From the NCBI GenBank assembly GCA_047639555.1, contig JBLIOE010000020.1, positions 4,100 to 68,099 on the forward strand: DNA of 64,000 nt, given 5' to 3'. This DNA is from Candidatus Aldehydirespiratoraceae bacterium. GTDB lineage: Bacteria > Actinomycetota > Acidimicrobiia > Acidimicrobiales > Aldehydirespiratoraceae. Position 1 is the first letter of the stretch. The number at the start of each line of letters is the position of its first letter. This document shows positions 1,735 to 49,411 of the stretch, piece after piece. The position numbers and the translations under genes were made by a program. The notes beneath the pieces were generated by a model that was not told where the DNA came from, made no database searches, and saw only the letters and a program-made list of their open reading frames with translations.

Positions 1735-2516
1735 CTCATCCGAAGATTGAGGTGAACATCGACGGCGACGTCGGTTCGATTCTCGTCAACAACCCAACGC
1801 GGCTGAACGCCATGACGGGCGCGATGTTCGATGCGCTTCACGGCGCCGCGATGACGATGCGCGAGGCAAGCCCTCGGGTTGTTGTCTTTCGCGGCGCCGG
1901 CGATCACTTCTGTTCCGGCGCCGACGTCAGTGGCGAAGGTGATGATGGAATCGAGGGCGTCGATCACCCGCTGCAAAACATGCGACGGATCGGCGATGCG
2001 GTCACCGCTCTGGCCGCTCTGCCCATGCCAACCATCGCCGCCGTCGACGGTGTGTGTGTCGGTGCGGGCTTCGGGTTCGCGCTCGCCGCCGACATGATGA
2101 TCTGCACCGATCGGGCTCGCTTCTCGTTGATCTTCGCCCGGCGGGCGCTGTCGCTCGACTTCGGCACGTCGTACCTGCTGCCGCAGCGCGTTGGCCTCCA
2201 TCGCGCCAAAGAGATGGCCTTCACCGCAGGGGAGTACGACGCTGCGGCCGCCGCCGAGATCGGTTTCGTGAACCAGGTGGTGCCGGCTGACGACCTCGAG
2301 TCGGCCACACAGGCACTTGTTGACAAGGTGGTCGCGGGTCCGCCGCTCGCGCTTTCGATGTCGAAGCGACTGTTGGAGGCGAGCGCCAATTCAACCCTCG
2401 CTCAGGCCGTCGAACAAGAGGCGCTGGCGCAGAACATCAACTTTCCGACCAACGATGTCCGCGAAGCGGCGGCTGCGTTCATTGAGAAACGGCCGACCCG
2501 CTTCACCGGTTCGTAG
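1731..2516 (+). CDS. enoyl-CoA hydratase/isomerase (crotonase) family protein
   Basis: ATG at 1731 overlaps the upstream stop (ATGA). Motifs: LVNNPTRLNAMT, FRGAGDHFCSGADV, PTIAAVDGVCVGAGFGFALAADM. Confidence 0.85.
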   Translation: MTHPKIEVNIDGDVGSILVNNPTRLNAMTGAMFDALHGAAMTMREASPRVVVFRGAGDHFCSGADVSGEGDDGIEGVDHPLQNMRRIGDAVTALAALPMPTIAAVDGVCVGAGFGFALAADMMICTDRARFSLIFARRALSLDFGTSYLLPQRVGLHRAKEMAFTAGEYDAAAAAEIGFVNQVVPADDLESATQALVDKVVAGPPLALSMSKRLLEASANSTLAQAVEQEALAQNINFPTNDVREAAAAFIEKRPTRFTGS

Positions 2517-2601
2517 AGCCGCTCGGGCCCAGGAAGGGCTCTTAGTGGTAGCGGTAGTAACGGAGCAGAAACGGCGGTGAGATTTCCTCCGGTGAGCGTG
2601 C

Positions 2602-2907
2602 TCACTTGATCTGGCCCCACTTGGAGCTGTTGTGCTCCTGAGCACAGTGGGGCCAAAACAGGTTGACATTCCCACTCCGGCAGAGACACTCACCCGACCA
2701 GCCGAAACAGGCCAACAGCACACGATGCAACAGGGCCAACGACACCCAGGCTGGGACATCGATCGTCCGCACGATCAGCGGGCTCACCCCACGGACTGCG
2801 ACACGTAAACGGACACCTATCCCAGTCCCGTCAACCTCCCACGGAACGTGACGCTCTCCGATCAGGAATGCTCGGACGATGAGAGTGCTCTGAGCGGGCT
2901 GGCTCAC
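2602..2907 (-). pseudogene. fragment of a pRiA4b ORF-3-like (IS1096 TnpR-like passenger) domain protein
   Basis: LRVAVRGVSPLIVRTIDVPAWVSLALLHRVLLACFGWSGE resembles the N-terminal signature of that domain (L.G..PPIWRR..VP...TL..LH..IQ.AMGW...HLH.F). The ORF stops ~30 aa later, so it looks truncated. Confidence 0.4.
2612..2655 (+). terminator. candidate stem-loop downstream of the crotonase pair
   Basis: 10-bp perfect inverted repeat TGGCCCCACT ... AGTGGGGCCA with an internal 7-bp sub-hairpin TGTGCTC/GAGCACA. It lies ~95 nt after the stop at 2516. No T-tract. Confidence 0.3.
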
Positions 2908-2954
2908 TGACCCAGCGAACGAGCTGGCGCCACGACGGGTTGGATATGCCCCTC

Positions 2955-3465
2955 TTACGGGTCTGGAGTGGCGAGAACAGCTTTGGTGACGAAGTCAGCG
3001 ATGCGTTCGGCGCTCCATCCGCGTCGTTGGAGGTCCGGCACTTCGCGTGGGTCGCTGGTGAGATTCCACATGAACAGCATCATCGTGGTGTTACCACCGA
3101 GTCGGACGAGCAACGGTTCGATCGGGGAGCATCCGAACGTGATCGCGGGTTCGCCCTCGTCGCGCCGCCGAAGGAATCCTTCTGACGACCGCAGGTTTAC
3201 GGCGAGTTCGCCGTGCTCGGCGCACGCTCGCACCCACGCCAGGTTCCAGCGCCCGAACGCCTTGATCGGGTCGCCGGCGGCACCGCCCGACGATGCAAAG
3301 AGTTCGACTGCGCGGATCGGCAGCTGCAGCACGATCGCCTGGATTGCATCGCTCACGGAGGCGAAGTGTCGGTACGCCGTCGCCGTCGACACTCCGGCGA
3401 GCTGTCCTCATCGGCTGGCACGACACGCTGGCTAACCTCTCATCGACATAAGACTGCATTCTCAT
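2955..3465 (-). pseudogene. TetR/AcrR-family regulator, apparently frameshifted inside the HTH
   Basis: ORF 2955..3392 begins at GTG inside the recognition helix (..AGVSTATAYRHF). In that frame a TGA lies 5 codons upstream. The preceding helix (MRMQSYVDERLASVS...) is readable only in the frame of ORF 3091..3465, so a frame change near 3395-3410 is implied. Confidence 0.5.
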
Positions 3466-3490
3466 CTACGGCCGCTCCGGCCGTAGCGTC

Positions 3491-4708
3491 TTGGCCGAAC
3501 GGAAGATCCGCATGATCGAAGCCCAACCGCACTCGTCGCCCACACCACGCGTGGCCGCTTTTGACCAATGGATCCGAGGTCGCTTCGTCGACCTCAACAC
3601 CGCGCTCGAAGATCTCTACGCCACGCAAGAGAACCGCTCCCAGGTGGCGGGGGTCGGCGACAGACTAAAGTCGCAGTTGCTCGGCGAGGGTCGGGATCTG
3701 ATCGTCCCGCTTGTCGAGGAGGGAAACACCGACGAGGGCTTCGACCGGGCGTTCGAGCTGCTCGGCAACGTCGGCTACTACATGGCTGCATGTCGACGCC
3801 ACGAGATCACTGAGCCCTCGCGCGAGCGGACATCACCGCTCGTGGAGGCGTCGACGCTCGCGCTCCACCTCGGCGCGTCGCTGGGCACGGTACCGCGCTT
3901 CGTCACCAGCCATATGGAGACGTACAACCGGGCGGTCAATGGCGTGTATCGCACGTTCACTCACGCTCCCGCCGAGAAACTGTTCCTCGATCACAACACT
4001 CGCGGCGCCTTCGCCTATATGCGTGCCGCCGACGCGCTGGGCCGTATCCACCCGATGGGAGTGTCTCACCCGGCCGCGCTCGACCTGCTCACCCATGCCC
4101 GCAACGCGCTAGAAGATGCGTACGAGATGAACGTCGAACTTGGTCGCAAGCTCGACGTCGACGACTTCTTTTTCCGCGTGCGGCCCTACTACAAGCCGCA
4201 CCGTGTCGGCTCGGTGGAGTACCGGGGTGCCAATGCGGGTGACTTCGCGGCGTTCAGCCAAATCGATATGCTCCTCGGATTGTGCAGCCCGACCGACCCG
4301 GCCTATAGCCAGGTTGTACTGGAGAAGTTCCCCTACCTCACCCCCGACGAGCAACGGCGTCTTCACGAATCGTTCCGCCACCCAAACGTGCTCGATGCAC
4401 TCCTCGCGCAGGCCGACCACGCCGCCGAGGCCTGGTTCCGTGAACACTCCGCTGCGTTCCTCGCCGTCTGTCGAGCGCATGGTCGCGCCGCAGCTCAGCA
4501 CCACGACGATCTCGTAATGAGCTTCATCAAGCGACCCGCCGAGCGGATCCCGCCCGAGCATCTCTCTGGTATCACGGCGAGCGGACCACCACTCGACGTG
4601 CTGCTCCGCGCCCTAGAAGGCCTGCGCGATCGGCGTCTCGCCGCGGACCGTGACGACATCCCCACCCGTCACGCGGACCTCGCCGCGCTGCGCGAGCTGA
4701 TCTCGTGA
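3491..4708 (+). CDS. PrnB-like (DUF1864 / IDO-TDO superfamily) putative heme enzyme
   Basis: FFFRVRPYYKPHRVGSVEYRGANAGDFAAFSQIDMLLG resembles, from memory, the PrnB core (ELRPFYEPIRVGG..Y.GPGA....F). A His pair (AAQHHDDL) sits near the C-terminus where PrnB has its proximal His. The longest ORF starts at TTG 3491, but ATG 3512 with GGAAG 6 nt upstream is more likely. Confidence 0.5.
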   Translation: MAERKIRMIEAQPHSSPTPRVAAFDQWIRGRFVDLNTALEDLYATQENRSQVAGVGDRLKSQLLGEGRDLIVPLVEEGNTDEGFDRAFELLGNVGYYMAACRRHEITEPSRERTSPLVEASTLALHLGASLGTVPRFVTSHMETYNRAVNGVYRTFTHAPAEKLFLDHNTRGAFAYMRAADALGRIHPMGVSHPAALDLLTHARNALEDAYEMNVELGRKLDVDDFFFRVRPYYKPHRVGSVEYRGANAGDFAAFSQIDMLLGLCSPTDPAYSQVVLEKFPYLTPDEQRRLHESFRHPNVLDALLAQADHAAEAWFREHSAAFLAVCRAHGRAAAQHHDDLVMSFIKRPAERIPPEHLSGITASGPPLDVLLRALEGLRDRRLAADRDDIPTRHADLAALRELIS

Positions 4709-5793
4709 CCGGCCCCTTCGTCGACCACCGCGGCGCTTACTTTCTTAGCCACTCAATCGGACTCCCCGTGCACGGATCGCGCGATGTCGTCGCCGGGTAC
4801 TTCGACACCTGGGAGAATCACACGGCGGACGCTTGGCCACGTTGGCTCGACGGCATCGAAGGATTCCGTACCGCCCTCGCCGAGCTGTTGTCGACCCGTG
4901 CCGCGTTGATCTGCCCGCAGAGCAACGTGTCGAGCGGGTTGGCGAAACTCCTCGACTCGCTGCATCACGGGTTTGACGCCCCGACGGTGTTGATCAGTGA
5001 CGATGCGTTTCCGTCGCTCGGTTTCGTCTGCACACGGTCGGGTTACGACGTGCGGTTCATCCCGCGTGAAGCCGACGTCTCCGATCCGGCCGTATGGCGC
5101 GAACATCTCGAAGGTGTCGACGTGGCCGTAGTCACCCACGTGCACTCCAACACCGGCATTTGCGTACCCGTCCCCGACATCACCGCGGAGGTTCGCGCCA
5201 GCGGAGCGATCACGGTGGTCGACGTCGCGCAGTCGGCCGGCATCATTCCGATTGACCTCGGCGTGTGGAAGGTCGATGCCGTCGTCGGATCCTGCGTCAA
5301 ATGGTTGAGCGGTGGGCCTGGCGCCGGGTGGTTGTGGGTGGCCGATACCGTGATCGACCGGTGCCGACCGAGTGACGTCGGTTGGTTCTCCCACGAGCAG
5401 CCGTTCGAGTTCGACATCCACGACTACCGCGACGCATCTGACGCGCTCCGATTCTGGGGCGGAAGCCCGACGGTCCTGCCGTTCCTCATCGCAGCGCACT
5501 CAATCAGAGCAATAGACCAACTCGGCCTCCACACGATCCGCGCACACAACCTCGCCCTCACCGACCACCTGATCGACCGGCTCGGCGAACTTGTCTTCAG
5601 CCCGCACGACCGAGATCGACGCAGCGGAACAGCCATCGTGCACGCCGACGAGGGCGTCGTCGAGCGCCTCGCTGAGCAGAACATCGGCGTCGACCATCGC
5701 ATCGGTGGAATCCGCGTCTCGCCACACGTCCACACCACGATGGACGACCTCGATCACCTTGCCCGACTGGTCAGCGACCACCCACGGAGCTGA
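4705..5793 (+). CDS. kynureninase-like PLP-dependent enzyme (aminotransferase class V fold)
   Basis: GSCVKWLSGGPGAGWLWV (PLP-Lys region), DVGWFSHEQPFEFD...ALRFWGGSPTV and GIRVSPHVHTT are collinear with kynureninase motifs (CTYKYLNGGPG..FVWV, SGWFGH..F.M, R...GTP). The GTG start overlaps the upstream stop (GTGA). Confidence 0.7.
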   Translation: MTGPFVDHRGAYFLSHSIGLPVHGSRDVVAGYFDTWENHTADAWPRWLDGIEGFRTALAELLSTRAALICPQSNVSSGLAKLLDSLHHGFDAPTVLISDDAFPSLGFVCTRSGYDVRFIPREADVSDPAVWREHLEGVDVAVVTHVHSNTGICVPVPDITAEVRASGAITVVDVAQSAGIIPIDLGVWKVDAVVGSCVKWLSGGPGAGWLWVADTVIDRCRPSDVGWFSHEQPFEFDIHDYRDASDALRFWGGSPTVLPFLIAAHSIRAIDQLGLHTIRAHNLALTDHLIDRLGELVFSPHDRDRRSGTAIVHADEGVVERLAEQNIGVDHRIGGIRVSPHVHTTMDDLDHLARLVSDHPRS

Positions 5794-5929
5794 GCATCGG
5801 CGCAGGCTCGCCCGCTGAGCTGGATACGCCTCAAGAACATCTCCAAGTCCTACGAACAGGCTGGGGTCTGGTCTCAAATCGACGAAACGTATCGGTCGAG
5901 TTCGACGTTGAGTGGGCGGAGGTTCCCGT

Positions 5930-6064
5930 TACTCCCGCTACCCGCCGTGTGACATTGTACAGTATTTCATGCTTTTTCTTGCTTTTCTGTGCGCTCCGTG
6001 TCAGAGTCAAACAACAGGAAATGCACTCACAAATAGTGGTATGCATTGAACAGAGGAGCACACG
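5930..6064 (+). promoter_or_regulatory. AT-rich upstream region of the WXG100 gene with RBS
   Basis: GC content drops locally (gacattgtacagtatttcatgctttttcttgcttttctg...). Inverted repeat AATGCA-N16-TGCATT lies just upstream of GGAG at 6054-6057, which is 7 nt before ATG 6065. Confidence 0.35.
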
Positions 6065-6340
6065 ATGTCCAACGACATGCTGGTCATGAGCAAGTCTCAG
6101 ATGGAGCAACTGGCCGTCACGTTCGGCACCCAGGCCGAAGCGGTCCAGCAGGTGATCAAGGCGATTCAGGGTGGTCTCGACGGCACGACCTGGCAGGGGA
6201 ACCGCTCGAACCGGTTCCGCGAGGCCTGGGCCTCCGAGTTTCGCCCGAACCTGATGAGCCTCGTCGATGCACTCGGCGAACACTCCGCCTTCATCGGGCG
6301 TGAACTACAGGCCGGCGTTTCGGCTCTCGACACGGTCTGA
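6065..6340 (+). CDS. WXG100-family (ESAT-6-like) type VII secretion substrate
   Basis: 91 aa with a predicted helix-turn-helix layout and a central W-Q-G (..GLDGTTWQGNRSNRF..). It has a good RBS and sits immediately upstream of the FtsK/SpoIIIE ATPase gene. Confidence 0.8.
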   Translation: MSNDMLVMSKSQMEQLAVTFGTQAEAVQQVIKAIQGGLDGTTWQGNRSNRFREAWASEFRPNLMSLVDALGEHSAFIGRELQAGVSALDTV

Positions 6341-6362
6341 CAACGCGAAAGCGGTCGGGGCC

Positions 6363-9300
6363 ATGCGCATCGTCCACCGCAGTGAACGAGGGGAGCGGAT
6401 CGTTGAGATCGATATCGACGATCCAACTCGCCCGATTGCTGCGCTTTGTGCCGCTCTGGGGCTCGCGGCAGAGTCCGGGGAGCGCATTGGTCTGGCGATC
6501 GACGGCCGATCGTTCGACCCCACCACGCCGCTCGCGGCAACGAACGTGTGTGAAGGGTCAGTCGTCGACTCCACTCCCACATCCACCCTCATCACCCCCA
6601 CATCCATCACCATCCAGAACCCGACCCCCTCCGCCCGGGCGCTCGCCATTGTTGGCGGCGTCCGGGCTGGAGGGTCGGTTCCGGTTGAGGGAGGCCTGTG
6701 TGTGGGCCGGTCGGTGGCGACCGACGTGTCACTTGATGATGCCGCCCTCTCGCCGCGACACTTCAGTGTCACGGCGGGCGGCGCATCGCTCATCGATCAC
6801 GGCACGCGCAATGGCACGTCGATCGAAGGGCATCCCGTCGCGGCACCGGCGGCGCTGGCCGCCGATCAAATGATCCGGGCGGGAACCACCCGACTGATGG
6901 TGCGAGATATCGAGGGCGACACTCCAGTGGCGGTGGCATCGGGTCTAGGCGCCCGTGGCGGGTCGATCCCGTTCAACCGCCCGCCCCGCTGCGAACCGCC
7001 AACCGAGATGGCCCCGTTGCGGGCCCCCGGCCTGCGGCCCGAAGCTCCGGTCATAGAGCCGATCTCCGTGGCGGGCATCGTTCTGCCGATTCTTGCCGGT
7101 GGTGTTATGGCGTTGGTCTTCTCGCCGTTCATGGCGATCTTTGCGGCGCTCGGGCCAGTACTCACGATCGGCACATGGCTTGAGCGGCGGCGTCGAGCTC
7201 GCCGAGAGTTCCGAACCGCAGAGCGAGTCTTCCTGGCGGAAATGGATGACCTACGTGACGTACTACCCAGCGCCCGTCGGGCCGAGGTCTGGCGCCGGCG
7301 CACGCTTCATCCCGATCCCGCGGAGGTGGTGCGCCGAGCGGCCGGTCCGTCGGTGCGGGTGTGGGAGCGACGCCCCGGCCACGCCGACAGTTTCTTGGTC
7401 GCGATCGGTGCCGCGGATGAGCCGTTCCGACCTCCGCTTCGCGCCAACCAGTCGGCCGACGTGGCCGTGGAAGTCGGTCGCGTTCTTGCGGGCCTGCCGC
7501 TGCTTCCCGATGTGCCTGTTCCGCTCGATCTTGGGCCCGGCAAGACGGTCGGTCTGGTCGGCGACCGTGGCGCCTGTCTTGCCATCGCTCGTTCGCTTGT
7601 CGTTCAGATGGCCACGCACCACGGTCCGGCCGACCTTGCCGTTGCGGTCGGTGCCGACGAACCTCGCCGGTGGCGTTGGTGTGAGTGGCTCCCTCACGCC
7701 GCCGATCACGCCAGCGGACTTCGCGGTGTCACCGTGGTTACGACCGACGACTCTCGTGCGGCTGAATCGATCCGGGCGATGCAGGGCGAGCGTCTTCTGC
7801 TCGCCGTGCTCGACGGAGACGACCCGTTCCAGGGGCGAACCACCGTCGGGCGGATTCTGGCCGCCGCCGATCGCGTGGCCACGATTGTGTTGGTTGCCGA
7901 CGAGCATCGTCTCCCGGCAACGTGCGACATGGTGGTTCGGGCGGACGAGTTTGGTCGGGTCACTTTGATCGACCCGCGTCAGGCATCACCCGGGCGCTCC
8001 GCGTTGGGGTGGGGTGTCAGCCTGGCCACGGCCCAATACGCGGCCCGTCGGCTGGCCCGCCTCGACGATCCCGAACTGCCGGTGGCCGGTGCTGGTGTGC
8101 CGTCGGCTGCGCCGCTTCTGTCACTGCTCGACATCCAGGGCGATGATGCCGCCGAGGTTGAGGCTCGCTGGCGGGCGACCGACGGCACGGCCGACCTGGC
8201 AAGTCCGATTGGTCTCGACGCCGACGGCGTCGTCTCCCTCGATCTTGTGCGAGAAGGACCCCACGTGCTGGTGGGCGGCACGACCGGATCGGGCAAATCC
8301 GAGCTCCTCCGCTCGCTCGTGGCCGGGCTGGCCGCCAGCGCGGATCCCGATCATGTCGCAATGGTGCTTGTTGACTACAAGGGTGGCGCCGCGTTCGACT
8401 GTTGCGCGGATCTGCCCCACGTCGCTGGTCTCGTAACCGACCTCGACGAGACCCTCGCAGCGCGGGCGCTCCGGTGCCTCGAGGCAGAGCTTCATCACCG
8501 GGAGCTGCGGCTTCGAGAACTTGGGGCCGAGGATCTGCCCGCGTTCCGTCGGTTGGCGGCTGGGCGTGACGACATCGATCCGCTCCCTCGGCTGATCGTT
8601 GTTGTCGACGAGTTCGCGTCGCTGGCCAGCGATCTGCCGGAGTTTCTCAATGCGTTGGTCGGCATTGCGCAGCGAGGCCGAAGTCTCGGTGTCCACATGA
8701 TTCTCGCCACGCAACGTCCCGCCGGTGTCGTGACCGACGACATTCGGGCCAACACGTCGTGCCGCATCGCTCTTCGAGTCACCGATCGGGGCGACTCGTC
8801 CGACGTCATCGATTCACCCGATGCGGCGGCGATCCCGCGTCATCGACCGGGCCGGGCGATCGCCCGCTTCGGACCGGGCGAGCTCGTGCCGTTCCAATCG
8901 GCGCTCGCCACCGGCTGCTCCGATGGCCGCGCTGGCGTGTCTCTTGTATTGCCGAGGGCAACGAAGCCCAACGTCGCACGCGACACCGATCTGCAACGGT
9001 TGGTTCGGTCGATCGGTGACGCCCATCGGGCCCGGGGCGGAGGGCTTCCGCGTTCTCCGTGGCCGCCCGCCCTTCCGACGGTTGCGACGCAAGCTGCTCA
9101 CGATGCTGCAGCCGGCGAGTGGCTCCTCGTGGATGAACCTGATCGGCAACAGCAACGCACCGACGGTTGGCTCCCGGCCGACGGCCATCTTTGTGTTGTT
9201 GGCGGACCGGGAAGTGGCACGACCACCACGCTTGCCACCGCGGCGCTCGCGGCCTCCGCTGTCGATCAGGACCGCCATCTCCATGTGATCGATCTCGACG

Positions 9301-10484
9301 CGGGTGGCCTCGCCCCTCTCGCGAACCTGCCAGCGACCGGCACCTACTGTGGGCCGAGCGATGTGGTGCGTCGTGGTCGACTCTTGCGATGGCTGGATGA
9401 CGAAGTGGGCCGCCGTCGAGTCGACCCCATGGCCGCCGCCCCCGAGATCTTGGTGATCATCGACGACTTCGGGGGGTTGGCGCGAGCCCACGACCCGGTG
9501 AAGGAAGCCGCGGTGCACGAACGCCTCGCGCGGGTCTGGGCCGACGGCCCCGCAGTGGGAATAAAGATGGCGGTATCGCTGCGCCGCTCGGCCGACCTGG
9601 CGCCGGCGCTGGCCGCGACGGTCGGGGAGGTCATCTTGCATCGCACCGCCGACCAGGCCGACGCGCTGCGATTCGGGCTCGTCGGGTCCACCGCCGGGTT
9701 CGTTGCCGGGCGCGTGATACGAAGCAGGGATGGAGCGACCGCTCACGTGCTGCTTCCCGCAGCCGGGGACGACTTTCTCCGGCACATCGTGGCCCGCCGG
9801 TGCGACGCCGACCCCGTGTTCGAGCCGCACCAGGTGGGCGAACTGGCGGCCGAGATCCCGTGGTCGACCGTCAGCGGCACGTTCCGCCTCGGCGCTCACG
9901 ACTGGTCGTTTGCCATCGGCGTTCGCGACCGCGATCTCGAACCAGCGATTGTGCGTCTGCACACAGGCGAACACTTCCTCGCCCTTGGTCCGGCCCGATC
10001 GGGTCGCACCAATACCCTCGCCGCCATTGCTCGGTCGGCCGGTCCTCACGCAATCGTTGTGGGCAACGGGTCACTTGCCCAACGCACCGGAATTGAGCCG
10101 ACGGATGCCGCGGAACTGGCCGCCGTCATCACCGCTCGAGAAGGTGGCGCCATCGTTTTGGTCGATGACTGCCTTGAGGTCGACGATCCCCTCGGGACGC
10201 TGGTCGCATTGGTCGCGGCGCCGCCCGCGGGCGTGCATCTCGTGGTGGCGGCTCGACCAGATCGTTATCGGTCGGCCTACGGCCATTGGGCGAGCGACAT
10301 CAAGTCCTCTCGAGTGGGAATATTGCTTCGCCCCGAGCCGCTCGATGGTGACTTGCTCGGTCAACAACTCCCGGCCCGACTCGGTCTTCCGGCGGTTCCC
10401 GGCCGCGGAATTGTGGTCGCCGACGGCTCGATCGAGATCGTCCAGGTCTTCCAGACCGATGCGTCGAATCGCTGTGACCCATGA
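6363..10484 (+). CDS. eccC: type VII secretion FtsK/SpoIIIE-family ATPase (EssC/EccC-like) with N-terminal FHA domain
   Basis: ATG 6363 (MRIVHRSERG...). FHA-like segment GRSVATDVSLDDAALSPRHFSV...DHGTRNGTSIEG (~6640-6910). Two TM helices (~7060-7190). Three P-loop domains: GGTTGSGKSELL with DEFASL and ILATQRP, GGPGSGTTTTL, and GPARSGRTNTL. Confidence 0.85.
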   Translation: MRIVHRSERGERIVEIDIDDPTRPIAALCAALGLAAESGERIGLAIDGRSFDPTTPLAATNVCEGSVVDSTPTSTLITPTSITIQNPTPSARALAIVGGVRAGGSVPVEGGLCVGRSVATDVSLDDAALSPRHFSVTAGGASLIDHGTRNGTSIEGHPVAAPAALAADQMIRAGTTRLMVRDIEGDTPVAVASGLGARGGSIPFNRPPRCEPPTEMAPLRAPGLRPEAPVIEPISVAGIVLPILAGGVMALVFSPFMAIFAALGPVLTIGTWLERRRRARREFRTAERVFLAEMDDLRDVLPSARRAEVWRRRTLHPDPAEVVRRAAGPSVRVWERRPGHADSFLVAIGAADEPFRPPLRANQSADVAVEVGRVLAGLPLLPDVPVPLDLGPGKTVGLVGDRGACLAIARSLVVQMATHHGPADLAVAVGADEPRRWRWCEWLPHAADHASGLRGVTVVTTDDSRAAESIRAMQGERLLLAVLDGDDPFQGRTTVGRILAAADRVATIVLVADEHRLPATCDMVVRADEFGRVTLIDPRQASPGRSALGWGVSLATAQYAARRLARLDDPELPVAGAGVPSAAPLLSLLDIQGDDAAEVEARWRATDGTADLASPIGLDADGVVSLDLVREGPHVLVGGTTGSGKSELLRSLVAGLAASADPDHVAMVLVDYKGGAAFDCCADLPHVAGLVTDLDETLAARALRCLEAELHHRELRLRELGAEDLPAFRRLAAGRDDIDPLPRLIVVVDEFASLASDLPEFLNALVGIAQRGRSLGVHMILATQRPAGVVTDDIRANTSCRIALRVTDRGDSSDVIDSPDAAAIPRHRPGRAIARFGPGELVPFQSALATGCSDGRAGVSLVLPRATKPNVARDTDLQRLVRSIGDAHRARGGGLPRSPWPPALPTVATQAAHDAAAGEWLLVDEPDRQQQRTDGWLPADGHLCVVGGPGSGTTTTLATAALAASAVDQDRHLHVIDLDAGGLAPLANLPATGTYCGPSDVVRRGRLLRWLDDEVGRRRVDPMAAAPEILVIIDDFGGLARAHDPVKEAAVHERLARVWADGPAVGIKMAVSLRRSADLAPALAATVGEVILHRTADQADALRFGLVGSTAGFVAGRVIRSRDGATAHVLLPAAGDDFLRHIVARRCDADPVFEPHQVGELAAEIPWSTVSGTFRLGAHDWSFAIGVRDRDLEPAIVRLHTGEHFLALGPARSGRTNTLAAIARSAGPHAIVVGNGSLAQRTGIEPTDAAELAAVITAREGGAIVLVDDCLEVDDPLGTLVALVAAPPAGVHLVVAARPDRYRSAYGHWASDIKSSRVGILLRPEPLDGDLLGQQLPARLGLPAVPGRGIVVADGSIEIVQVFQTDASNRCDP

Positions 10485-11271
10485 CCAGAGCGGCGAGGTA
10501 AGGGACTCCCAGAGTTGGGCCGAGACTGGAGACGTGAAGCGGTTCGTCGCCCCCCTGATCAAAAGGATTGGCAACCTCGGCGGGTTGTCGCGTCAGGGCG
10601 TAATTGTCACGTCGCGATGGGTCCGCACCCATCCATTGCCGTCGGGTCCTCGTCAGGTTCTTTGGCTCCTCCCGGCCTCGGTGATGATCGGTGCCGGTGT
10701 CGCCTCCCTGGCCGCCGCTGGCTTTGGGGTGGCGCCCTACGACGTCGGAATCTCGGCGATCGCTCACCATACGCCGCTCTCGTTTGGTCAGTCCTCGTGG
10801 GCCATGTCGGGCACCCTCTTCTTGTTGGCGGCGCTGCTCGGCGTGCGGCCAACCTCGAGAAGTCTTGGTCTGATCTTCCTCAACGGGTTGACCATCGACA
10901 TTGCGCTGCAGATTGTGTCGGAGCCGCAGGGGCTCGGCGCTCGAATCGGGCTTGCGGCGTTCGGTGCCGCGATCCTGGTAGTTGGCGTCGCCACGGTGGT
11001 CTATCAAGCGGCGGCCGGTGGAGCGTTCGAAGCGCTGATGCATGCCGCGGAGAAACACGGCCGTCGCCCGGTTGTGGTTCGCAGTGCGCTCGAAGTTGGG
11101 AGCCTGGTGCTCGGGGCGATTGCGGGGGGCAGCATCGGCGTGATGACGGTGATCATCGCCCTCACGATCGGCCCGGCCATCGGTTTTGGCCTCCAGGCGT
11201 TTGACGATCATCGACTCGGGCGAGAGGTGCGGCTGGCCGCGGTCCAGTCCGAGCGTCAGTCCGTTTCGTAA
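10459..11271 (+). CDS. polytopic membrane protein (YczE/YitT-like, family uncertain)
   Basis: About 6 hydrophobic helices (LLPASVMIGAGVASLAAAGFG.., SWAMSGTLFLLAALLG.., IGLAAFGAAILVVGVATVVY..). The start is uncertain: ATG 10459 overlaps the eccC end, and the alternative is GTG 10534. Confidence 0.45.
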   Translation: MRRIAVTHDQSGEVRDSQSWAETGDVKRFVAPLIKRIGNLGGLSRQGVIVTSRWVRTHPLPSGPRQVLWLLPASVMIGAGVASLAAAGFGVAPYDVGISAIAHHTPLSFGQSSWAMSGTLFLLAALLGVRPTSRSLGLIFLNGLTIDIALQIVSEPQGLGARIGLAAFGAAILVVGVATVVYQAAAGGAFEALMHAAEKHGRRPVVVRSALEVGSLVLGAIAGGSIGVMTVIIALTIGPAIGFGLQAFDDHRLGREVRLAAVQSERQSVS

Positions 11272-12239
11272 CGCACGCCGAGATTGGCTCGAATCTTGTC
11301 GCAACGGGCGATCATGGCCCGACTGGTTGCCCACGGCATCCGGGGGCTTTCGAGCTCACCAGCCCGCAGGCATCGATGCACCTCGACAACCTGATGATGA
11401 AGGCCGGGTGAATCGCCTTCGATTGTTTCAGTTTCGGGGCCGCGGCGAAGGGTGACAGTCGCGCTGGCGTGAGCCGGTAGCGGAAACTCCACGAGTCCTT
11501 TGGTCCCTTCGATGCGGGCCGTCATTGGGCCCGCGAGCCGAAGTGCGGCGGTGAGAAGCGCCGACGCCCCCGACTCCCATTCGCATAACAGGCTGACTTC
11601 ATCGTCGACCCCCGTGGGAGCGATGTGGCCGGTCGACGTGACGGACGCGGGTTCGCCGAGCGCCCACCATGCCATCGAGAGCGGGTAGATCCCGAGGTCA
11701 AGCAATGCGCCGCCGCCCTTGGCTCGGTCATAGAGTCGATGGCCGGCATCGAACGGGAGAGCGAAGGAGAAATCGGCGGTGATTCGACGCACCTCGCCGA
11801 TGTCGCCGTTGTGGATGCGTCGGAAAGCCTCGACGTGGGTCGGGTTGAACCGCATCCACAACGCTTCCATGAGGAAACGATCGTTGGCGCTCGCAGCCGC
11901 GATCATACGATCGACCTCGCCCTGGTTGAGAGCGATGGGCTTTTCGACGAGGACATGTTTGCCCGCGGCGAGGAAGAGTTCGGCCTGCTCGGCGTGCACC
12001 GGGTGAATCCCGGCGATGTACACGATGTCGACATCGGGGTCAGTGGCGAGGTCCGCATACGAGCCATGGGAGCGGTCGATCCCATGTGTTGTGGCGAACG
12101 TATTGGCCGTCTCGGCTGATCGTGAACCGACGGCCACGATCTCGCCATCGTCGAGCTTGGCGAAGTCCGTCACAAAGCTTGCGGCGATACCGCCCGTCCC
12201 CGCAATGCCCCAACGAATTGGTTCGGTATGTGGGTCCAT
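11256..12239 (-). CDS. Gfo/Idh/MocA-family NAD(P)-dependent oxidoreductase
   Basis: Starts at MDPHTEPIRWGIAGTGGIAASF (Rossmann motif), then EKPIALN. The upstream part of the 520-aa ORF is Arg/Ala/Ser-rich and was rejected. Confidence 0.85.
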   Translation of the reverse strand: MDPHTEPIRWGIAGTGGIAASFVTDFAKLDDGEIVAVGSRSAETANTFATTHGIDRSHGSYADLATDPDVDIVYIAGIHPVHAEQAELFLAAGKHVLVEKPIALNQGEVDRMIAAASANDRFLMEALWMRFNPTHVEAFRRIHNGDIGEVRRITADFSFALPFDAGHRLYDRAKGGGALLDLGIYPLSMAWWALGEPASVTSTGHIAPTGVDDEVSLLCEWESGASALLTAALRLAGPMTARIEGTKGLVEFPLPAHASATVTLRRGPETETIEGDSPGLHHQVVEVHRCLRAGELESPRMPWATSRAMIARCDKIRANLGVRYETD

Positions 12240-12270
12240 GCGGGCTCCTGTGGGGTGTTGATCGGGCGAG

Positions 12271-14415
12271 ATGCGCGCAGCTGCTGCAACTAGCGACCAC
12301 CATACGCAGATGCAAGCCACTGGTTCTTTTCCTCGCCGCCAAGCAGCGACGCGTCGGTTCACGCTGGGGGCGCCGCGTGATTTCCGAGTTTCGAGCGCCG
12401 GCGACCGGGTGCTCTTCTTGCGTTCGGGTGGACCCGTCGACCCGGTGAACTCGTTATGGGAGTTCGATCCGGCGACCGCGGCCGAGCGACTCGTGGTAGA
12501 TGCCGCCGCCTTAGGAGTCGACGAAACCGACCTGCCACCGGAGGAACGGGCCCGACGTGAACGGGCTCGAGAGTCTGGCGGGGGCATCGTCGCCTTTGAT
12601 GCCACTGCGGACCTCGCGGCGGCGGTGTTTGCGATCGGCGGGCAGTTGGCCCGGGCTGATGTTGCAACGGGGGTCGTCTCGATGTTGGCGGCCGCAGCCG
12701 GGGTATTCGATCCGCGGCTCTCGCCCGACGGGCAGCACGTGGGGTATGTCACGGGCGATGCTCTCCGCGCGATCGTTGATGGCGAAGACCGACTGATCGC
12801 GCAGGAAGCAGCGAGCACGGTTTCGTGGGGTTCGGCGGAGTTTGTTGCGGGCGAGGAGATGGGCCGTACCCGCGGCTACTGGTGGAGTCCGCAAAGTGAC
12901 GCACTGCTGGTCGAGCGGGTGGACGTGGCTCCGGTCGAGGAGTGGTGGATCTCGGCGCCGGTGTCGCCGGCTGAGGCGCCGACCCCGGTGCGTTATCCCG
13001 CGGCAGGCACCGCGAACGCCCAGGTTTCTCTTGCCATCGTCTCGCTCGACGGCGACACTGCCCCGATCGACTGGCCAGCCGGCGGTTGGGAGTATCTCGC
13101 TTCGGCATCGTGGGACGACGATGGCATCTGGCTCACGATGCAGAGCCGAGATCAGCGCACCTTGGCGGTGTTCCAGGTCGACCCGAGCGATGGGTCGGTC
13201 TCTGAGATGCACCGCATCGAGGACGATCATTGGGTTGAGCTGATTCCTGGCACTCCGGCTCGACAGGGCGGCCGCCTGATCACGGTGGAGGACCGGGGCG
13301 CGGCTCGCCGTCTCTGTGTCGACGGCGAGGCAATCACCGGCGACGGTGTGCAGATCCGCCGGGTGATCTCGGTCTATGCCGACGGCGTGGTTGTCGCCGC
13401 GTCGCGAGAACCGACATCGGTCCACGTCGGTCGCGTTGGCTGGGACGGCACCATCGAGTGGGTGACGGAGGTGGCCGGCGTGCACGGCGCGGTGATCGGT
13501 GGGCCCACTCAGGTGCGGGTGTCGCGGAGCTTGGCGTTCGATGGGTCCCAGGTCTCGGTGGTGCGAGCCGGAGTCTCGATTGGGACGATCAACGATCACT
13601 CCGAACGGCCGGATGTCTCGCTCAATATGAAGATGCTGCGCTTGGGTGATCGCGAGTTGGCGGCGGCATTGCTCTTACCCAACGGCGTGGCCGATGACGC
13701 TCGGCTCCCGGTTCTGCTTGATCCCTATGGTGGCCCACATGCTCAGCGCGTCCAACAATCCCGGTCGCTCTTTCACGCGTCGCAGTGGTTTGCCGATCAA
13801 GGGTTCGCGGTGCTCGTCACTGATGGTCGCGGTACCCCCGGGCGAGGTCCGGCGTTCGAGCGGGCGGTCCGGGGCGACCTCGCGGCTCCGGTGCTGGACG
13901 ACCAGGTTGATGCCCTTCAGGCGGCGGCTGTGCTCGAGCCGCGGCTGGACCTCACTCGTGTTGCAATACGCGGCTGGTCCTTTGGTGGTTATCTCGCGGC
14001 GCTTGCTGTTCTGCGTCGTCCCGACGTGTTCCATGCCGCGGTTGCCGGAGCGCCGGTCACGGATTGGCGGCTTTACGACACGCACTACACCGAGCGCTAC
14101 CTCGGCCATCCAGACACCGAGCCCGAGAACTATGAACGAACCGACCTCACGGTGGAGCCGGTATTGCTCGATCCGGCAATCCCGTTTCCACCACTCCTGT
14201 TGATCCATGGTCTGGCCGACGACAATGTTGTCGCTGCACACACTCTCAAACTGTCGCGGGCCCTGCTTGAAGCCGGCCGAGCACACACGGTCCTTCCGTT
14301 GTCGGGTGTCACCCACATGACGCCGCAAGAAGAGGTGGCAGAGAACCTCCTGTTGGTGCAACTCGTGTTCCTCCGCGAAGCCCTCGCCCAATCAGACGGG
14401 AACAGCGATGAGTGA
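12271..14415 (+). CDS. S9-family serine peptidase (dipeptidyl-peptidase IV / prolyl oligopeptidase type)
   Basis: N-terminal beta-propeller-like region followed by DPYGGPHAQRV, GWSFGGYLA (nucleophile Ser), HGLADDNV and GVTHM. An alternative start is ATG 12310. Confidence 0.85.
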   Translation: MRAAAATSDHHTQMQATGSFPRRQAATRRFTLGAPRDFRVSSAGDRVLFLRSGGPVDPVNSLWEFDPATAAERLVVDAAALGVDETDLPPEERARRERARESGGGIVAFDATADLAAAVFAIGGQLARADVATGVVSMLAAAAGVFDPRLSPDGQHVGYVTGDALRAIVDGEDRLIAQEAASTVSWGSAEFVAGEEMGRTRGYWWSPQSDALLVERVDVAPVEEWWISAPVSPAEAPTPVRYPAAGTANAQVSLAIVSLDGDTAPIDWPAGGWEYLASASWDDDGIWLTMQSRDQRTLAVFQVDPSDGSVSEMHRIEDDHWVELIPGTPARQGGRLITVEDRGAARRLCVDGEAITGDGVQIRRVISVYADGVVVAASREPTSVHVGRVGWDGTIEWVTEVAGVHGAVIGGPTQVRVSRSLAFDGSQVSVVRAGVSIGTINDHSERPDVSLNMKMLRLGDRELAAALLLPNGVADDARLPVLLDPYGGPHAQRVQQSRSLFHASQWFADQGFAVLVTDGRGTPGRGPAFERAVRGDLAAPVLDDQVDALQAAAVLEPRLDLTRVAIRGWSFGGYLAALAVLRRPDVFHAAVAGAPVTDWRLYDTHYTERYLGHPDTEPENYERTDLTVEPVLLDPAIPFPPLLLIHGLADDNVVAAHTLKLSRALLEAGRAHTVLPLSGVTHMTPQEEVAENLLLVQLVFLREALAQSDGNSDE

Positions 14416-15595
14416 GTTAGATGCGGCTCGAGCGGCGCGCCTTCATGACGGCCAAGCCTGGGATGACTTCTGCGACACCTTGAAGGCTGCCGGACACATT
14501 GCGCTCCGCGAAACACCCGACGGCAACGGTCAGGACCGGGTCGAAGGTTTCCGCTACATCATCCGGATGATCCTCATGGCGTCGTTCCGCGGGATCGAGC
14601 GCGTCACGCCCGGCACTGAGCCTTCCCGGGTCGGGATCATTCCTCCGCCGCTGAGTGGAGGCATCGGTGTGCAGTCGCCGAATCAGGATCACATCGTCCA
14701 GCCGGTCGACGCCCAGTATCGCTATCGGATCACCGGCACCGCCGGCGATGTCTATACCCACTTGTCGGCCTGGAGTCCGCCGATCCCCGAGAACGTCGGT
14801 GCGTTCTCGACCGGTGGCGATCCCGAGGGTTACCTCGAGACGTTCAATCCCAACATGGCGCTCACCCCGCACACCTCCGAGCTCGCGGAATTCGTCGCCG
14901 CCGACGGCACCGTTGATTTCATTCTTTCGGTTGAGCCGCCAAAAGACGGCAGTGCATGGATGTCGATGGCGTCCACCACTCGAGAGCTGATGGGTCGGGT
15001 TGTCTACGATGACCGCGCCACGCAGACCAAGCCCCGTCTCAAGATCCAATGCCTCGATGAACACGATCGGCCCCACACGCCCACACCGGAAGATATGTCG
15101 ACGCGGCTCGCCGTGAGCGGGCAGCTCGTTCTCGGGCTGCTCTCCGACTATGCGGGGTGGACACGAGATCTACTCACCCGCGAGAACGAGACCGAATTCA
15201 CCCGTGAGTGGTACGAGCGCATCGGCGGCTCACCCGACGACCGCCATTTCGAGTTCGGCTACTGGCGCGTGCCCGAAGGAATGGCGCTCGTGGTCGACTT
15301 CGAAGAACCCACCACACAGCACTGGAACTTCCAACTCTGTAACCACTGGATGGAGAACCTCGCGAACTATGCGACCGGCGAGGGCTACATCGACAAGGAG
15401 AACGCGGTGCGCGATGGCAGCCGGGTTCGAATCGTCGTCGCCCACGCGGACCCGGGTGTTGCGAACTGGATCGAACCTCGCACCCACGATCACGGCGTGA
15501 TGGGGCTGCGGTTTGTGCGGCCCGGCATCGAGCCCGTCGTGCACACCAAGCTCGTGCCGGTTGCCGAAGTGGCCGGACTCGCTCCGCAAATTTGA
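14408..15595 (+). CDS. conserved hypothetical protein (DUF1214-like), paralogue of 29139..30224
   Basis: Shares WDDFCDTLKAAG, EGFRYIIR, YRYRITG, HWNFQLCNHWMENL, VVAHADPGVANW and HGVMGLRF with the second copy. The family name is from memory only. Confidence 0.5.
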   Translation: MSELDAARAARLHDGQAWDDFCDTLKAAGHIALRETPDGNGQDRVEGFRYIIRMILMASFRGIERVTPGTEPSRVGIIPPPLSGGIGVQSPNQDHIVQPVDAQYRYRITGTAGDVYTHLSAWSPPIPENVGAFSTGGDPEGYLETFNPNMALTPHTSELAEFVAADGTVDFILSVEPPKDGSAWMSMASTTRELMGRVVYDDRATQTKPRLKIQCLDEHDRPHTPTPEDMSTRLAVSGQLVLGLLSDYAGWTRDLLTRENETEFTREWYERIGGSPDDRHFEFGYWRVPEGMALVVDFEEPTTQHWNFQLCNHWMENLANYATGEGYIDKENAVRDGSRVRIVVAHADPGVANWIEPRTHDHGVMGLRFVRPGIEPVVHTKLVPVAEVAGLAPQI

Positions 15596-29138: not shown

Positions 29139-30224
29139 ATGAACGACGACGAGAAGGTTCTGTCCGGGGAAGCGTGGGCGGAGTTCTGTGATCAGCTGAA
29201 GGCCGCGGGCGAGTTGGTGCAGACGCGCTCCGAAGACGACCTCGACAAGGCGGAGGGGTATCGCTACCTCACTCGCCTTCTTCGCGGCGGGCTGAGCAGC
29301 TATTTCGAGACGGGCGACTCGAAATTTCCCGTCATTCGACCAATGCCGTACCAGCTGAAGATCGGGTCAGATAACCCCGACTCGAACTACATGACTACTC
29401 CGATTGATGGTCGGCTGAACTATCGCATCACCGGCCATCGCGGCACTGTTCACTATCTGTCCATCAGCGCGTTCGCCGGCAACTATGGGGCGGGTCAGGA
29501 TCGACTGGGTTTGATGGGGTTCATCGACGGTAACGATCTGTTGGTCGACGACGATGGCCAGGTCGAGATCTTTGTTGGTCCTACTCCACACGATCACAAC
29601 TGGGTGTCGACAAGACCCGAACCGGGCAGTCTTGGTATCCGCCAGTTCTTCCTCGACCGCACCACGGAGACCGAGGCCGACCTCCACATCGAGTGCCTCG
29701 ACCATGACGAGTCACCGAAAAATCTCACCCCCGAAGGGCTGGGGAAGCAGCTGGCCGGTGCGTCAATGTTTGTGGCCGGCTGTTCGGAAATTTTCACGGG
29801 ATGGGTCGACGACCTCATGGAGGAGAGCTGCAACGCGTTCACCACGAAGGCGGCGCCAATGGGCGGCGCGTGGGGCGACCCAAATCAGATCTTCCGGCAT
29901 GGTGGGTTTCGGCTCGCAGAAGGCGAGGCGCTGATCATCGAGTTCACTCCGCCCGAGTGCTTCTACTGGAACTTCCAGGTGAACAATCGGTGGATGGAGA
30001 GCCTCGACTATCGCTGGCTTCCGGTCACCATCAACAAGCACACCGTTCGCCTCGAAGACGATGGATCAGTGCAGTTGGTGCTCGCCCATCGCGATCCCGG
30101 CTTCGGCACCTGGATGACTACGCACGGGCATACACACGGCACGATCGGGCTTCGGTGGAATCAGGCCGAGGAAGACGTGGAGCCCACGATTCGGTTGGTC
30201 AACCTCGACGACGCACCATCGTGA
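29139..30224 (+). CDS. conserved hypothetical protein (DUF1214-like), paralogue of 14408..15595
   Basis: WAEFCDQLKAAG, EGYRYLTR, YRITG, YWNFQVNNRWMESL, LVLAHRDPGFGTW, HGTIGLRW. Confidence 0.5.
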   Translation: MNDDEKVLSGEAWAEFCDQLKAAGELVQTRSEDDLDKAEGYRYLTRLLRGGLSSYFETGDSKFPVIRPMPYQLKIGSDNPDSNYMTTPIDGRLNYRITGHRGTVHYLSISAFAGNYGAGQDRLGLMGFIDGNDLLVDDDGQVEIFVGPTPHDHNWVSTRPEPGSLGIRQFFLDRTTETEADLHIECLDHDESPKNLTPEGLGKQLAGASMFVAGCSEIFTGWVDDLMEESCNAFTTKAAPMGGAWGDPNQIFRHGGFRLAEGEALIIEFTPPECFYWNFQVNNRWMESLDYRWLPVTINKHTVRLEDDGSVQLVLAHRDPGFGTWMTTHGHTHGTIGLRWNQAEEDVEPTIRLVNLDDAPS

Positions 30225-49043: not shown

Positions 49044-49298
49044 TTATGCCGCGCCGTCGACAACCTGAAGTGTTGCCTTCTTCTTGAGGCCGTCGCGGTC
49101 GTGGCGCTCGAGGCAGCAATTCAGCGCGCGGATCTTGTCGCTCGCGGTGGTCTTGTGGAAGTTCGGCATGATGGCGTGGACGAATGCCGCAGCGGCCGCG
49201 CCGGCAAGTTGACGGCTCACGCCCATGGCTACACCGAAGTGTTCGCCGAAGGTTTCGCCCGCGTCGTGGGGGTGCTGGGTGAAGGGGTTCGCAGCCAT
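49044..49298 (-). CDS. small conserved hypothetical protein (DUF6356-like)
   Basis: 84 aa. FTQHPHDAGETFGEHFGVAMGVS...FVHAIMPNFHKTTASDKIRAL resembles that family as I recall it. Confidence 0.4.
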   Translation of the reverse strand: MAANPFTQHPHDAGETFGEHFGVAMGVSRQLAGAAAAAFVHAIMPNFHKTTASDKIRALNCCLERHDRDGLKKKATLQVVDGAA

Positions 49299-49411
49299 AG
49301 GTTCAGAGTAGAGATATTTCCAAGAAAGAACTGTGCGTTGTTTGCGGCAGTTCGCGCAGATGTAGTGATTCTGTTTCGCAAAATGATGAAATGGTGCAAT
49401 AGTCTTCGATT

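Follow-up and report, generated by a model that had tools for sequence, protein, structure and literature searches.

A conserved WXG100-ATPase gene pair in Acidimicrobiia: a membrane ATPase with ubiquitin-like and FHA domains fused in cis and its relation to type VII secretion

The DNA analysed here (the window) comprises 64 kb of one Acidimicrobiia genome, Candidatus Aldehydirespiratoraceae bacterium (assembly GCA_047639555.1, contig JBLIOE010000020.1, positions 4,100 to 68,099), and all statements on absent genes refer to these 64 kb. With a G+C content of 63.7%, it reads as actinobacterial. Within it lies a locus of two genes, one for a 91-aa protein of the WXG100 family and one for a large EssC/EccC-like membrane ATPase, which starts 22 nt past the WXG100 stop codon. 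Such an ATPase and a WXG100 protein are common to all type VII secretion systems (T7SSs), and a ubiquitin-like (Ubl) module is nearly universal among them. As judged from its sequence, the ATPase belongs to an unannotated actinobacterial family that carries both a Ubl domain and a forkhead-associated (FHA) domain, the latter apparently competent for phosphothreonine binding, fused in cis. In the window, this ATPase is encoded in a conserved two-gene locus, the features of which are compiled in Table 1.

The ATPase combines on one polypeptide two transmembrane (TM) helices, a domain of unknown function (DUF domain) and three P-loop domains of the FtsK/SpoIIIE type (D1 to D3), a combination by which T7SS ATPases are broadly recognized. 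Pfam FtsK_SpoIIIE matches it in two stretches (136.6 bits). Among proteins of solved structure, the best match over the whole length is EccC of T. curvata (269 bits), followed by EccC5 (182 bits) and YukB (173 bits), and three stretches of the ATPase align with D1, D2 and D3 of T. curvata EccC. A motif scan identified D1 as the sole ATPase domain with canonical Walker A and Walker B motifs. In phmmer comparisons, it matched D1 of YukB (146.5 bits), T. curvata EccC (133 bits) and EccC5 (99.5 bits). By these motifs and matches, D1 is predicted to be the one catalytically competent P-loop domain of a membrane-anchored motor of the EssC/EccC type. D2 reads GGPGSGTT (residue 947) and IIDD at the corresponding positions and D3 GPARSGRT and LVDD, so that both the Walker A lysine and the catalytic glutamate are missing. 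As the family alignment shows the same substitutions throughout, they are a family trait and not decay. Probably, D2 and D3 serve regulation or substrate docking. With the exception of a short patch near the C-terminus, all 19-residue Kyte-Doolittle windows that exceed 1.6 have their first residue at 227-255. The F-N-R-P-P-R motif in front of the membrane occupies the position of the EssC-type Y/F-x-R-S-P-R in the published alignment (PMC11217815 Fig. S2).

The N-terminal part was modelled with AlphaFold2. A model of 214 aa based on an alignment of 32 homologues has a mean pLDDT of 85.6, with about 95 for residues 1-72, and residues 1-74 modelled separately have a mean pLDDT of 90.8. The order of strands and helix is b-b-a-b-b-b, and the best Foldseek matches of the Ubl model in the PDB are ubiquitin, NEDD8 and SUMO with template-modelling (TM) scores of 0.65-0.70. 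At the sequence level, the segment from the window has no Pfam match. When the Ubl domains of 30 family members were compared with Pfam, three matched SAMP2 (best 1.3e-7), and matches to ubiquitin occurred as well, all of these being weak. A profile of the Ubl domain searched against PDB sequences detected EccD3 only at E ~9. By the structural model, a ubiquitin fold of the N-terminal 72 residues is well supported, in agreement with a first-pass annotation of this DNA in which a ubiquitin-like start of about 70 aa had been considered.

The same annotation had placed an FHA domain directly behind these ~70 aa, and Pfam recognizes it there: PF00498 scores 28.6 bits at a cut-off of 20.7 (residues 114-173). 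The FHA model matches structures of the GarA/OdhI type and other phosphothreonine-binding FHA domains (E ~1e-8, TM score normalized to the target ~0.86). The phosphothreonine motifs G115-R116, S130-x-x-H133 and N150-G151 are intact, and the conservation of these positions across the family is complete or reaches at least 90%. The same motif pattern was reported for TsdC, TseC and TsjC, but not for EssC (PMC11217815 Table S1). The view that an N-terminal FHA domain is confined to firmicutes had to be given up: ATPases with Ubl and FHA domains are present in dozens of Actinomycetota genomes, and an FHA-bearing actinobacterial system, T7SSd, was published in 2024 (PMC11217815).

Between the Ubl and FHA domains lies a short linker. 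For the majority of the sequences from the window's clade, threonine and serine together account for 30-43% of the linker (range of the entire clade 15-43%), compared to 8-19% of the remaining segment. In this clade, the linker starts with V-[VL]-[DE]-T-[TA], and in distant family members linkers are rich in proline and alanine. In GarA and OdhI, a phosphorylated N-terminal ETTS motif binds the protein's own FHA domain intramolecularly, and the linker motif is similar to it. By analogy, one might speculate that the Thr/Ser-rich linker acts as an auto-inhibition switch of the GarA/OdhI kind.

Loci related to the pair were collected by searching a single genome of each species with a full-length ATPase alignment, which returned 80 loci. 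Three related loci are used repeatedly in the following: L086 (on a 231-kb contig) and L087, whose ATPases are 89-92% identical to that of the window, and L001 (59%), which is located on a 4.48-Mb contig of GCA_033344915.1. The 91-aa protein passes the WXG100 profile PF06013 with 32.0 bits (cut-off 27.3) and stays below the narrower NCBIfam model TIGR03930 (30.6 bits, cut-off 44.85). Its W-x-G motif is kept in 19 orthologues of the family alignment. With the orthologues from L086 and L087 it shares 99% identity, with that from L001 80%. The ratio of non-synonymous to synonymous substitutions (dN/dS) of its gene is 0.010-0.015 at a dS of 0.33-0.46 (versus L086 and L087), and at least 15 related loci have the gene directly 5' of the ATPase gene. 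By analogy with known systems, the protein is presumed to be a secreted substrate or a co-factor. It is probably a homodimer, since no second Esx gene is present. The core of the first-pass annotation is correct: a WXG100 gene with W-Q-G at mid-length is followed after 22 nt by a gene for a 1373-aa EssC/EccC-like ATPase with two TM helices and the three P-loops quoted there.

The gene pair is preceded by a conspicuous leader. Over the 120 nt that precede the WXG100 start codon, the G+C content is 0.44 compared to 0.637 in the window, which is among the lowest 0.1% of all 120-nt windows. The AT-rich upstream region mentioned in the first-pass annotation is therefore real, and position 5930, with which that annotation began, belongs to this intergenic region. 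About 125 nt 5' of the WXG100 start can be aligned near base for base with L086 and L087 and largely also with L001. Putative promoter hexamers, a small palindrome and a ribosome-binding site (RBS) were found in this region (Table 1); a scan of the leader for a consensus sigma-70 promoter found nothing. A known RNA element was rejected for the leader, as there is neither an Rfam match nor a covarying structure, and the predicted fold of the leader RNA consists only of a 4-bp hairpin without covariation. The conservation of these nucleotides suggests that the leader holds a conserved regulator site.

Table 1. Positions of the genes, domains and putative regulatory elements at the WXG100-ATPase locus (nucleotide numbering of the window)
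Feature	Position	Strand	Remarks
AT-rich 5' region of the WXG100-ATPase operon	5945-6064	+	conserved, GC 0.44
Putative -35 box TTGCTT	5979-5984	+	hexamer read by eye from the conserved alignment, inferred
Putative -10 box CAGAGT	6002-6007	+	17-nt spacer after the -35 box; read by eye, inferred
Small palindrome TCAC-N5-GTGA	6027-6039	+	in the conserved leader; second half given as GTGA or GTGG
RBS AGAGGAG	6052-6058	+	before the WXG100 start
WXG100 gene	6065-6340	+	91 aa, W43-Q44-G45, conserved C-terminal tail ELQAGVSALDTV
EssC/EccC-like membrane ATPase gene	6363-10484	+	1373 aa, ATG start, Ubl-FHA-2TM-DUF-D1-D2-D3
Ubiquitin-like (beta-grasp) domain, residues 1-72	6363-6578	+	AlphaFold2 model
Ubl-FHA linker, residues 73-90	6579-6632	+	disordered in the model; TPTSTLITPTSITIQNPTPS, 43% T+S
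FHA domain, residues ~91-185	6633-6917	+	Pfam and structural match
Juxtamembrane motif F-N-R-P-P-R, residues 204-209	6972-6989	+	invariant in 32 diverse family members
Two TM helices, residues ~233-273, then Arg-rich stop-transfer segment	7059-7181	+	hydropathy
ATPase domain D1	8190-8912	+	Walker A GTTGSGKS (residue 639), Walker B LIVVVDE (residue 744)
ATPase-like domains D2 and D3	9120-10481	+	Walker A without lysine; Walker B DD for DE
YczE/DUF6198-like polytopic membrane protein gene	10534-11271	+	neighbour, not counted in the system

The proteins closest to the ATPase are encoded in metagenome-assembled genomes (MAGs) of Acidimicrobiales and other Acidimicrobiia, two at 89-92% identity and dozens at 55-60%. 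They share its architecture and carry only generic names, being currently annotated just as 'FtsK/SpoIIIE' or 'FHA domain-containing'. In the window, L086 and L087, the gene order is the same: a luciferase-like oxidoreductase and two enoyl-CoA hydratases are followed by the WXG100 protein, the ATPase and the DUF6198 protein, and 3' of the latter by a GFO/IDH/MocA oxidoreductase, an S9 peptidase, a TetR regulator and an ABC transporter. L001 has the same flanks and the same pair, which is located there between the enoyl-CoA hydratases and the GFO/IDH/MocA oxidoreductase and S9 peptidase, and in L007-L011 the pair is found in a similar setting. The arrangement of two genes without linked accessory genes is stable over a clade with 47-92% ATPase identity. 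For the ATPase gene, dN/dS is 0.11-0.14 (versus L086 and L087), compared to 0.02-0.18 for the flanking housekeeping genes. Since the same flanks recur in L001, L007-L011, L086 and L087, the WXG100-ATPase pair is an old and stable two-gene unit amid metabolic genes, and it is under strong purifying selection.

Compared to L086, L087 and L001, the window has three additional genes inserted between the second hydratase gene and the WXG100 gene (2955-5793). They encode a 145-aa minus-strand open reading frame (ORF) product, TetR-like by eye and without a Pfam or NCBIfam match, a PrnB-like enzyme (525 bits with Pfam PrnB) and an aminotransferase of class V. The insert looks like a small acquired cassette for the modification of tryptophan or indole. 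On the other side of the pair, the gene at 14408-15595, which stays beside the S9 peptidase gene in close relatives, encodes a protein without a Pfam match. It is paralogous to the product of 29139-30224, which has a weak DUF1214 match; both proteins comprise about 360-395 aa and have similar N-termini.

Further T7SS components were searched for with tblastn, with hidden Markov models (HMMs) built from the neighbour families of related loci, and with Pfam on flanking and unannotated genes. Apart from the WXG100 gene and the ATPase gene, none was detected in the 64 kb, and what had been noticed for the immediate surroundings of the pair in the first-pass annotation is thereby extended to the entire window. 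The Pfam annotation of the flanks and the rest of the window contains neither essA nor essB, esaA or esaB, and eccB, eccD, eccE, mycP, an EsxB partner and PE/PPE genes were not found in the window. The WXG100 gene is the only one of its kind there, as no second WXG-like gene was seen. Likewise, neither a kinase nor a large secreted protein was found in the 64 kb. By Pfam, the remaining genes of the window have metabolic, transport and housekeeping functions only.

The combination found in the window is widespread. A Ubl-like start, an FHA domain or FHA-like segment, x-N-R-P-P-R and a TM hairpin recur in dozens of Actinomycetota genomes, beyond Acidimicrobiia among others in Streptomyces, Actinoplanes, Actinocrinis, Arthrobacter, Rothia, Winkia, Alloscardovia (Bifidobacteriaceae) and Solirubrobacterales. 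When a profile of the N-terminal alignment was searched against 1.84 billion representative sequences, proteins with several FHA domains dominated the 2231 matches at 1e-30; many proteins in this list have a single full N-terminal match, and it yields no clean family size. Neighbours of the ATPase genes were analysed by clustering of our own gene calls, six-frame HMM searches and Pfam on representatives; in the low-GC loci L006, L018, L038 and L039, genes were delimited by hand. A membrane Ser/Thr kinase is encoded beside the ATPase in 18 loci, including L013, L025, L029 and L055 from Acidimicrobiales. Other recurrent neighbours are two more families of WXG100-like proteins (94 aa and ~119 aa), LysM-domain membrane proteins, and a protein of ~500 aa, a candidate effector, which has an Abhydrolase_8 domain and is helical in its N-terminal region. 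In L020, L034 and L035, a second WXG-like protein of ~120 aa is encoded between the WXG100 protein and the ATPase. In Micrococcales, Actinomycetales and Bifidobacteriales, proteins of ~950 aa and ~440 aa are encoded upstream and a kinase downstream.

None of these partner families of the relatives is detectable anywhere in the 64-kb window, and in the window's clade, the single WXG100 gene directly 5' of the ATPase gene is the only linked partner. In the neighbour-joining tree, the nearest outgroups L012, L014 and L029 keep a second WXG-like gene, and L029 keeps also a kinase gene. For this reason, the bare WXG100-ATPase pair looks derived.

Several of the related loci deserve mention in their own right. 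In a Streptomyces-type branch (L057, L060, L066 and L070-L072 from Streptomyces, Kineosporia and Promicromonospora), the ATPases have a Ubl-like start and D-Y-N-R-P-P-R, and their FHA-like segment has, by eye, lost GR, SxxH and NG. They are accompanied by LysM membrane proteins, WXG100 proteins of 116-126 aa, and proteins of ~390-560 aa that are helical in their N-terminal region and have TM segments at the C-terminus. In other Acidimicrobiia, hydrolase genes are located 3' of the ATPase gene (L020, 13630-15144; L034, 13612-15063; L002, 14303-17760). Their products of ~480-510 aa, which combine a helical N-terminal region with an Abhydrolase_8/DUF900 domain, are candidate T7SS effectors of the lipase or esterase type. 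L031, labelled as a MAG of an uncultured gammaproteobacterium, encodes a LysM protein, a WXG100 protein and a Ubl-FHA ATPase, and groups in trees with loci from Acidimicrobiaceae; probably, the taxonomic label of the bin is wrong for this contig. L039 from Alloscardovia venturai (2051-12252) encodes a Ubl-FHA ATPase with a Ser/Thr kinase directly 3' and proteins of 891, 151 and 259 aa 5' of it. The systems of Bifidobacteriaceae may thus belong to the ATPase family of the window.

Since ATPases of the family adjoin kinases, WXG100-like genes, LysM proteins and an alpha/beta-hydrolase, their surroundings point to a link with export in the relatives of the window. By analogy with these and with characterized systems, it is likely that the pair constitutes a functional export module of the T7SS type, two linked genes of which are present at the locus. 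In the core structure from B. subtilis, the FHA domains and the DUF domain of YukB hold YukD between them. Assembly of the core requires YukD, and the YukB hexamer was modelled as a central channel (PMC12637312). By analogy with T7SSa and T7SSb machines, the ATPase of the window would hexamerize, and its TM and stalk helices would line a conduit through the membrane. The cis-fused Ubl domain would fill the role of free YukD/EsaB or of the Ubl domain of EccD by clamping the FHA domain against the DUF domain. It could take the position of YukD without a separate gene, because it is part of the same polypeptide and directly precedes the FHA domain. The WXG100 homodimer might use its conserved tail to dock on the degenerate C-terminal ATPase-like domains, and it would be exported itself and/or license the export of unlinked cargo. 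The FHA domain might respond to phosphothreonine set by a Ser/Thr kinase, the gene of which would be unlinked in the lineage of the window and adjoins the ATPase gene in several relatives. In this way, activity or assembly would be coupled to the kinase. A mechanistic precedent is an Esx system of Actinomycetaceae, in which EsxA/B and effectors are exported in an eccC-dependent manner under the control of threonine phosphorylation (PMC13622651). Accessory parts and cargo, if any, would be encoded elsewhere in the genome. As relatives carry kinase, WXG-like, LysM and hydrolase genes beside the ATPase gene, the two-gene locus may simply have unlinked partners.

A number of results weigh against the assignment to type VII export or to its known branches. 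With the curated NCBIfam models, the ATPase remains below all cut-offs: it scores 409.4 bits with EssC TIGR03928 (cut-off 778.4), 357.9 with EccCa TIGR03924 (509.15) and 223.3 with EccCb TIGR03925 (346.55). Neither D2 nor D3 has the Walker A lysine. The YukD profile PF08817 is matched by one of the 30 family members (E = 0.018), and YukD is not among the top 50 structural matches of the Ubl model. The modelled domain thus resembles ubiquitin in general, and a specific relationship to YukD is only weakly indicated. Finally, neither a kinase nor cargo nor a further membrane component was seen in the 64 kb, which leaves the pathway incomplete as far as the present data go.

Alternatively, the two proteins might be self-sufficient: the ATPase hexamer would be motor, scaffold and channel in one, the WXG100 protein would be the sole substrate, and the genome would encode no other component. 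This would fit with the stability of the bare arrangement over 47-92% ATPase identity, the lack of a second WXG-like gene in the loci of the window's clade and the fusion of the Ubl domain in cis, which spares one separate component. Acidimicrobiia are monoderm, so that only a single membrane has to be crossed. However, the residues for phosphothreonine binding are retained in the FHA domain, so that a kinase, at the least, is to be expected as a partner, and in sister lineages the ATPase is adjoined by a kinase, LysM membrane proteins, hydrolase effectors or another WXG-like protein. Furthermore, all characterized T7SSs need additional membrane proteins (PMC11217815), and the visible sequence amounts to 64 kb of the genome. 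A self-sufficient pair is therefore rather unlikely. Equally doubtful is the broader proposal that the family represents an undescribed T7SS subtype that extends across the Actinomycetota, has the essential Ubl component fused in cis in front of a phosphothreonine-reading FHA domain, and was reduced in one lineage of Acidimicrobiia to a self-sufficient gene pair, the smallest T7SS known.

One might regard the polytopic membrane protein encoded downstream as the channel, or the partner in the membrane, that the ATPase lacks. In the window, L086 and L087, its gene comes next after the ATPase gene in the same orientation, and it is under purifying selection (dN/dS ~0.15). Precomputed Pfam labels the protein DUF6198; with the NCBIfam model YczE NF052291 it scores 75 bits (cut-off 205), i.e. 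it is related to YczE, not equivalent to it. The overlap of its start with the ATPase stop codon, which had been considered in the first-pass annotation, is probably not real: GTG 10534 has a GGAG RBS and is located 50 nt past the ATPase stop, and the orthologues, 245 aa in length, have the same spacing, which makes the overlapping ATG 10459 less likely. The co-occurrence of such a gene with WXG100-ATPase pairs, also considered there, did not hold either. A DUF6198 gene is absent from the Pfam-annotated gene list of the syntenic L001 and was not seen in our own gene calls for L007-L011 or the other ~80 related loci. In addition, nothing links the YczE family to secretion. The gene is a recent neighbour and no conserved partner, and for want of co-occurrence with the ATPase family a role of its product as channel partner was rejected as highly improbable.

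It is also very hard to reconcile the data with an FtsK/TraB-like DNA translocase that acts in conjugation or chromosome segregation and not in protein export. The FtsK_SpoIIIE domain and weak matches to TraB (30 bits), TrwB and the DNA translocase FtsK (66.5 bits) point in this direction, but three tandem P-loop domains and a DUF domain are arranged as in EssC/EccC, and the models of the latter score far higher (409, 358 and 223 bits) than FtsK NF007615 (66.5 bits at a cut-off of 1566). Moreover, Pfam reports no Ftsk_gamma domain, the ATPase gene is tightly paired with the WXG100 gene, and no mobile-element genes are located nearby. Thus, of the stripped-down secretion or DNA/protein-translocation module envisaged in the first-pass annotation, the conserved T7SS-type pair is upheld, and the role in DNA translocation is not. 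An inactive remnant of a once larger T7SS cluster, as the reduction of the locus compared to its relatives and the degenerate Walker A motifs of D2 and D3 could suggest, is hardly credible and largely refuted by the selection analysis, as both reading frames are intact with dN/dS values of 0.01-0.14, the promoter region is conserved and the degenerate motifs are shared by the whole family.

The export module considered likely here would extend T7SS-type export to Acidimicrobiia, which are common environmental bacteria. Being pared down by nature, the locus offers a system for testing an ATPase-only channel and the gating of secretion by phosphothreonine. A literature search that covered journals accessible without subscription, and that is no proof of absence, found no paper on an ATPase-fused Ubl domain or on T7SS genes in Acidimicrobiia.

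Remote from the pair, the G+C content of the window reaches its minimum at 49290-49410 (0.417 over 120 nt). This stretch is an intergenic region between a minus-strand ORF of 84 aa and a plus-strand ORF of 152 aa (Lrp/AsnC-type by eye), and probably a divergent promoter region.

The known T7SSs were classified by Garrett, Higginson and Palmer (2024), who defined T7SSa to T7SSj (PMC11217815). For a comparison of D1 domains, ten reference ATPases (Fig. S2 of PMC11217815) were combined with 59 locus ATPases that have a recognizable D1 Walker A motif and with the ATPase of the window. D1 of the window is 42-47% identical to the T7SSb-j references, 28% identical to EccC5 and 53-83% identical to its own family. 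In a neighbour-joining tree without bootstrap, with references machine-read from a PDF and the divergent EccC5 representing T7SSa, all Ubl-FHA ATPases form one clade apart from the clade of the T7SSb-j references. The first-pass annotation had set the ATPase beside both EccC and EssC; a placement with either was not obtained, as it scores below the cut-offs of both and its D1 belongs to a separate actinobacterial clade in this tree.

With T7SSb, the window shares the order FHA-TM-DUF-D1-D2-D3 of EssC/YukB, the juxtamembrane x-R-x-P-R, a Ubl module in the core and a single WXG100 gene, the product of which is presumably a homodimer. The D1 domains are 45% identical and give the best single-domain score. 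In contrast to the window's ATPase with one Ubl domain and one FHA domain in which GR, SxxH and NG are intact, EssC has two FHA domains without the phosphothreonine residues (PMC11217815 Table S1) and binds the pseudokinase EssB. Furthermore, the T7SSb Ubl is a separate protein (YukD/EsaB), and EssA, EssB and EsaA are missing from the window.

T7SSa (ESX) systems are found in the same phylum, T. curvata EccC is the best whole-protein match of solved structure, and a Ubl domain is present, there on EccD. However, EccC has neither an FHA nor a Ubl domain, and the window has no EccB, EccD, EccE or mycosin. In Actinobacteria, the YukD domain was described to be always fused to a protein with 12 TM segments (Iyer et al., 2006). 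Besides the free protein in T7SSb and most variants and the fusion to EccD in T7SSa, fusion to the ATPase would be a third way of supplying the Ubl module. GarA and OdhI resemble the window's ATPase in that they are the best structural matches of its FHA domain, which is preceded by a Thr/Ser-rich segment, but they are small soluble regulators of metabolism, whereas the FHA domain of the window is part of a secretion ATPase.

T7SSd is actinobacterial, comprises the FHA-bearing TsdC and a kinase, and was reported as the sole type without a Ubl protein, which was regarded as a puzzle (PMC11217815). Like the locus in the window, it has a single WXG100 gene, an ATPase with two TM helices and no separate YukD-like gene, and the N-terminal FHA domain of TsdC contains the conserved GR, SxxH and NG. 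A Ser/Thr kinase gene, as in T7SSd, adjoins the ATPase gene in many relatives of the window, and none is linked to it in the window itself. On the other hand, TsdC from O. uli starts with an FHA1-like segment followed by the FHA domain and not with a ubiquitin fold, its D1 is only 43% identical to that of the window and falls with the T7SSb-j references, and genes for TsdD, TsdH and the large Ig-like TsdI are not linked to the pair. The idea that the window's family is T7SSd, with the fused Ubl domain as its missing Ubl component, was therefore rejected, as the N-terminus of O. uli TsdC is FHA-like and its D1 lies elsewhere. If the 'T7SSd' of Bifidobacterium is of the L039 type, the ubiquitin-like component that was reported missing may be the N-terminus of the ATPase. 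The family of the window has the membership set of neither T7SSa nor T7SSb and shares with that of T7SSd only the FHA motifs. With its Ubl domain fused to the ATPase, compared to the lack of a Ubl reported for T7SSd, it would nevertheless function in the manner of T7SS ATPases, and T7SSd is the type that it most resembles in its logic.

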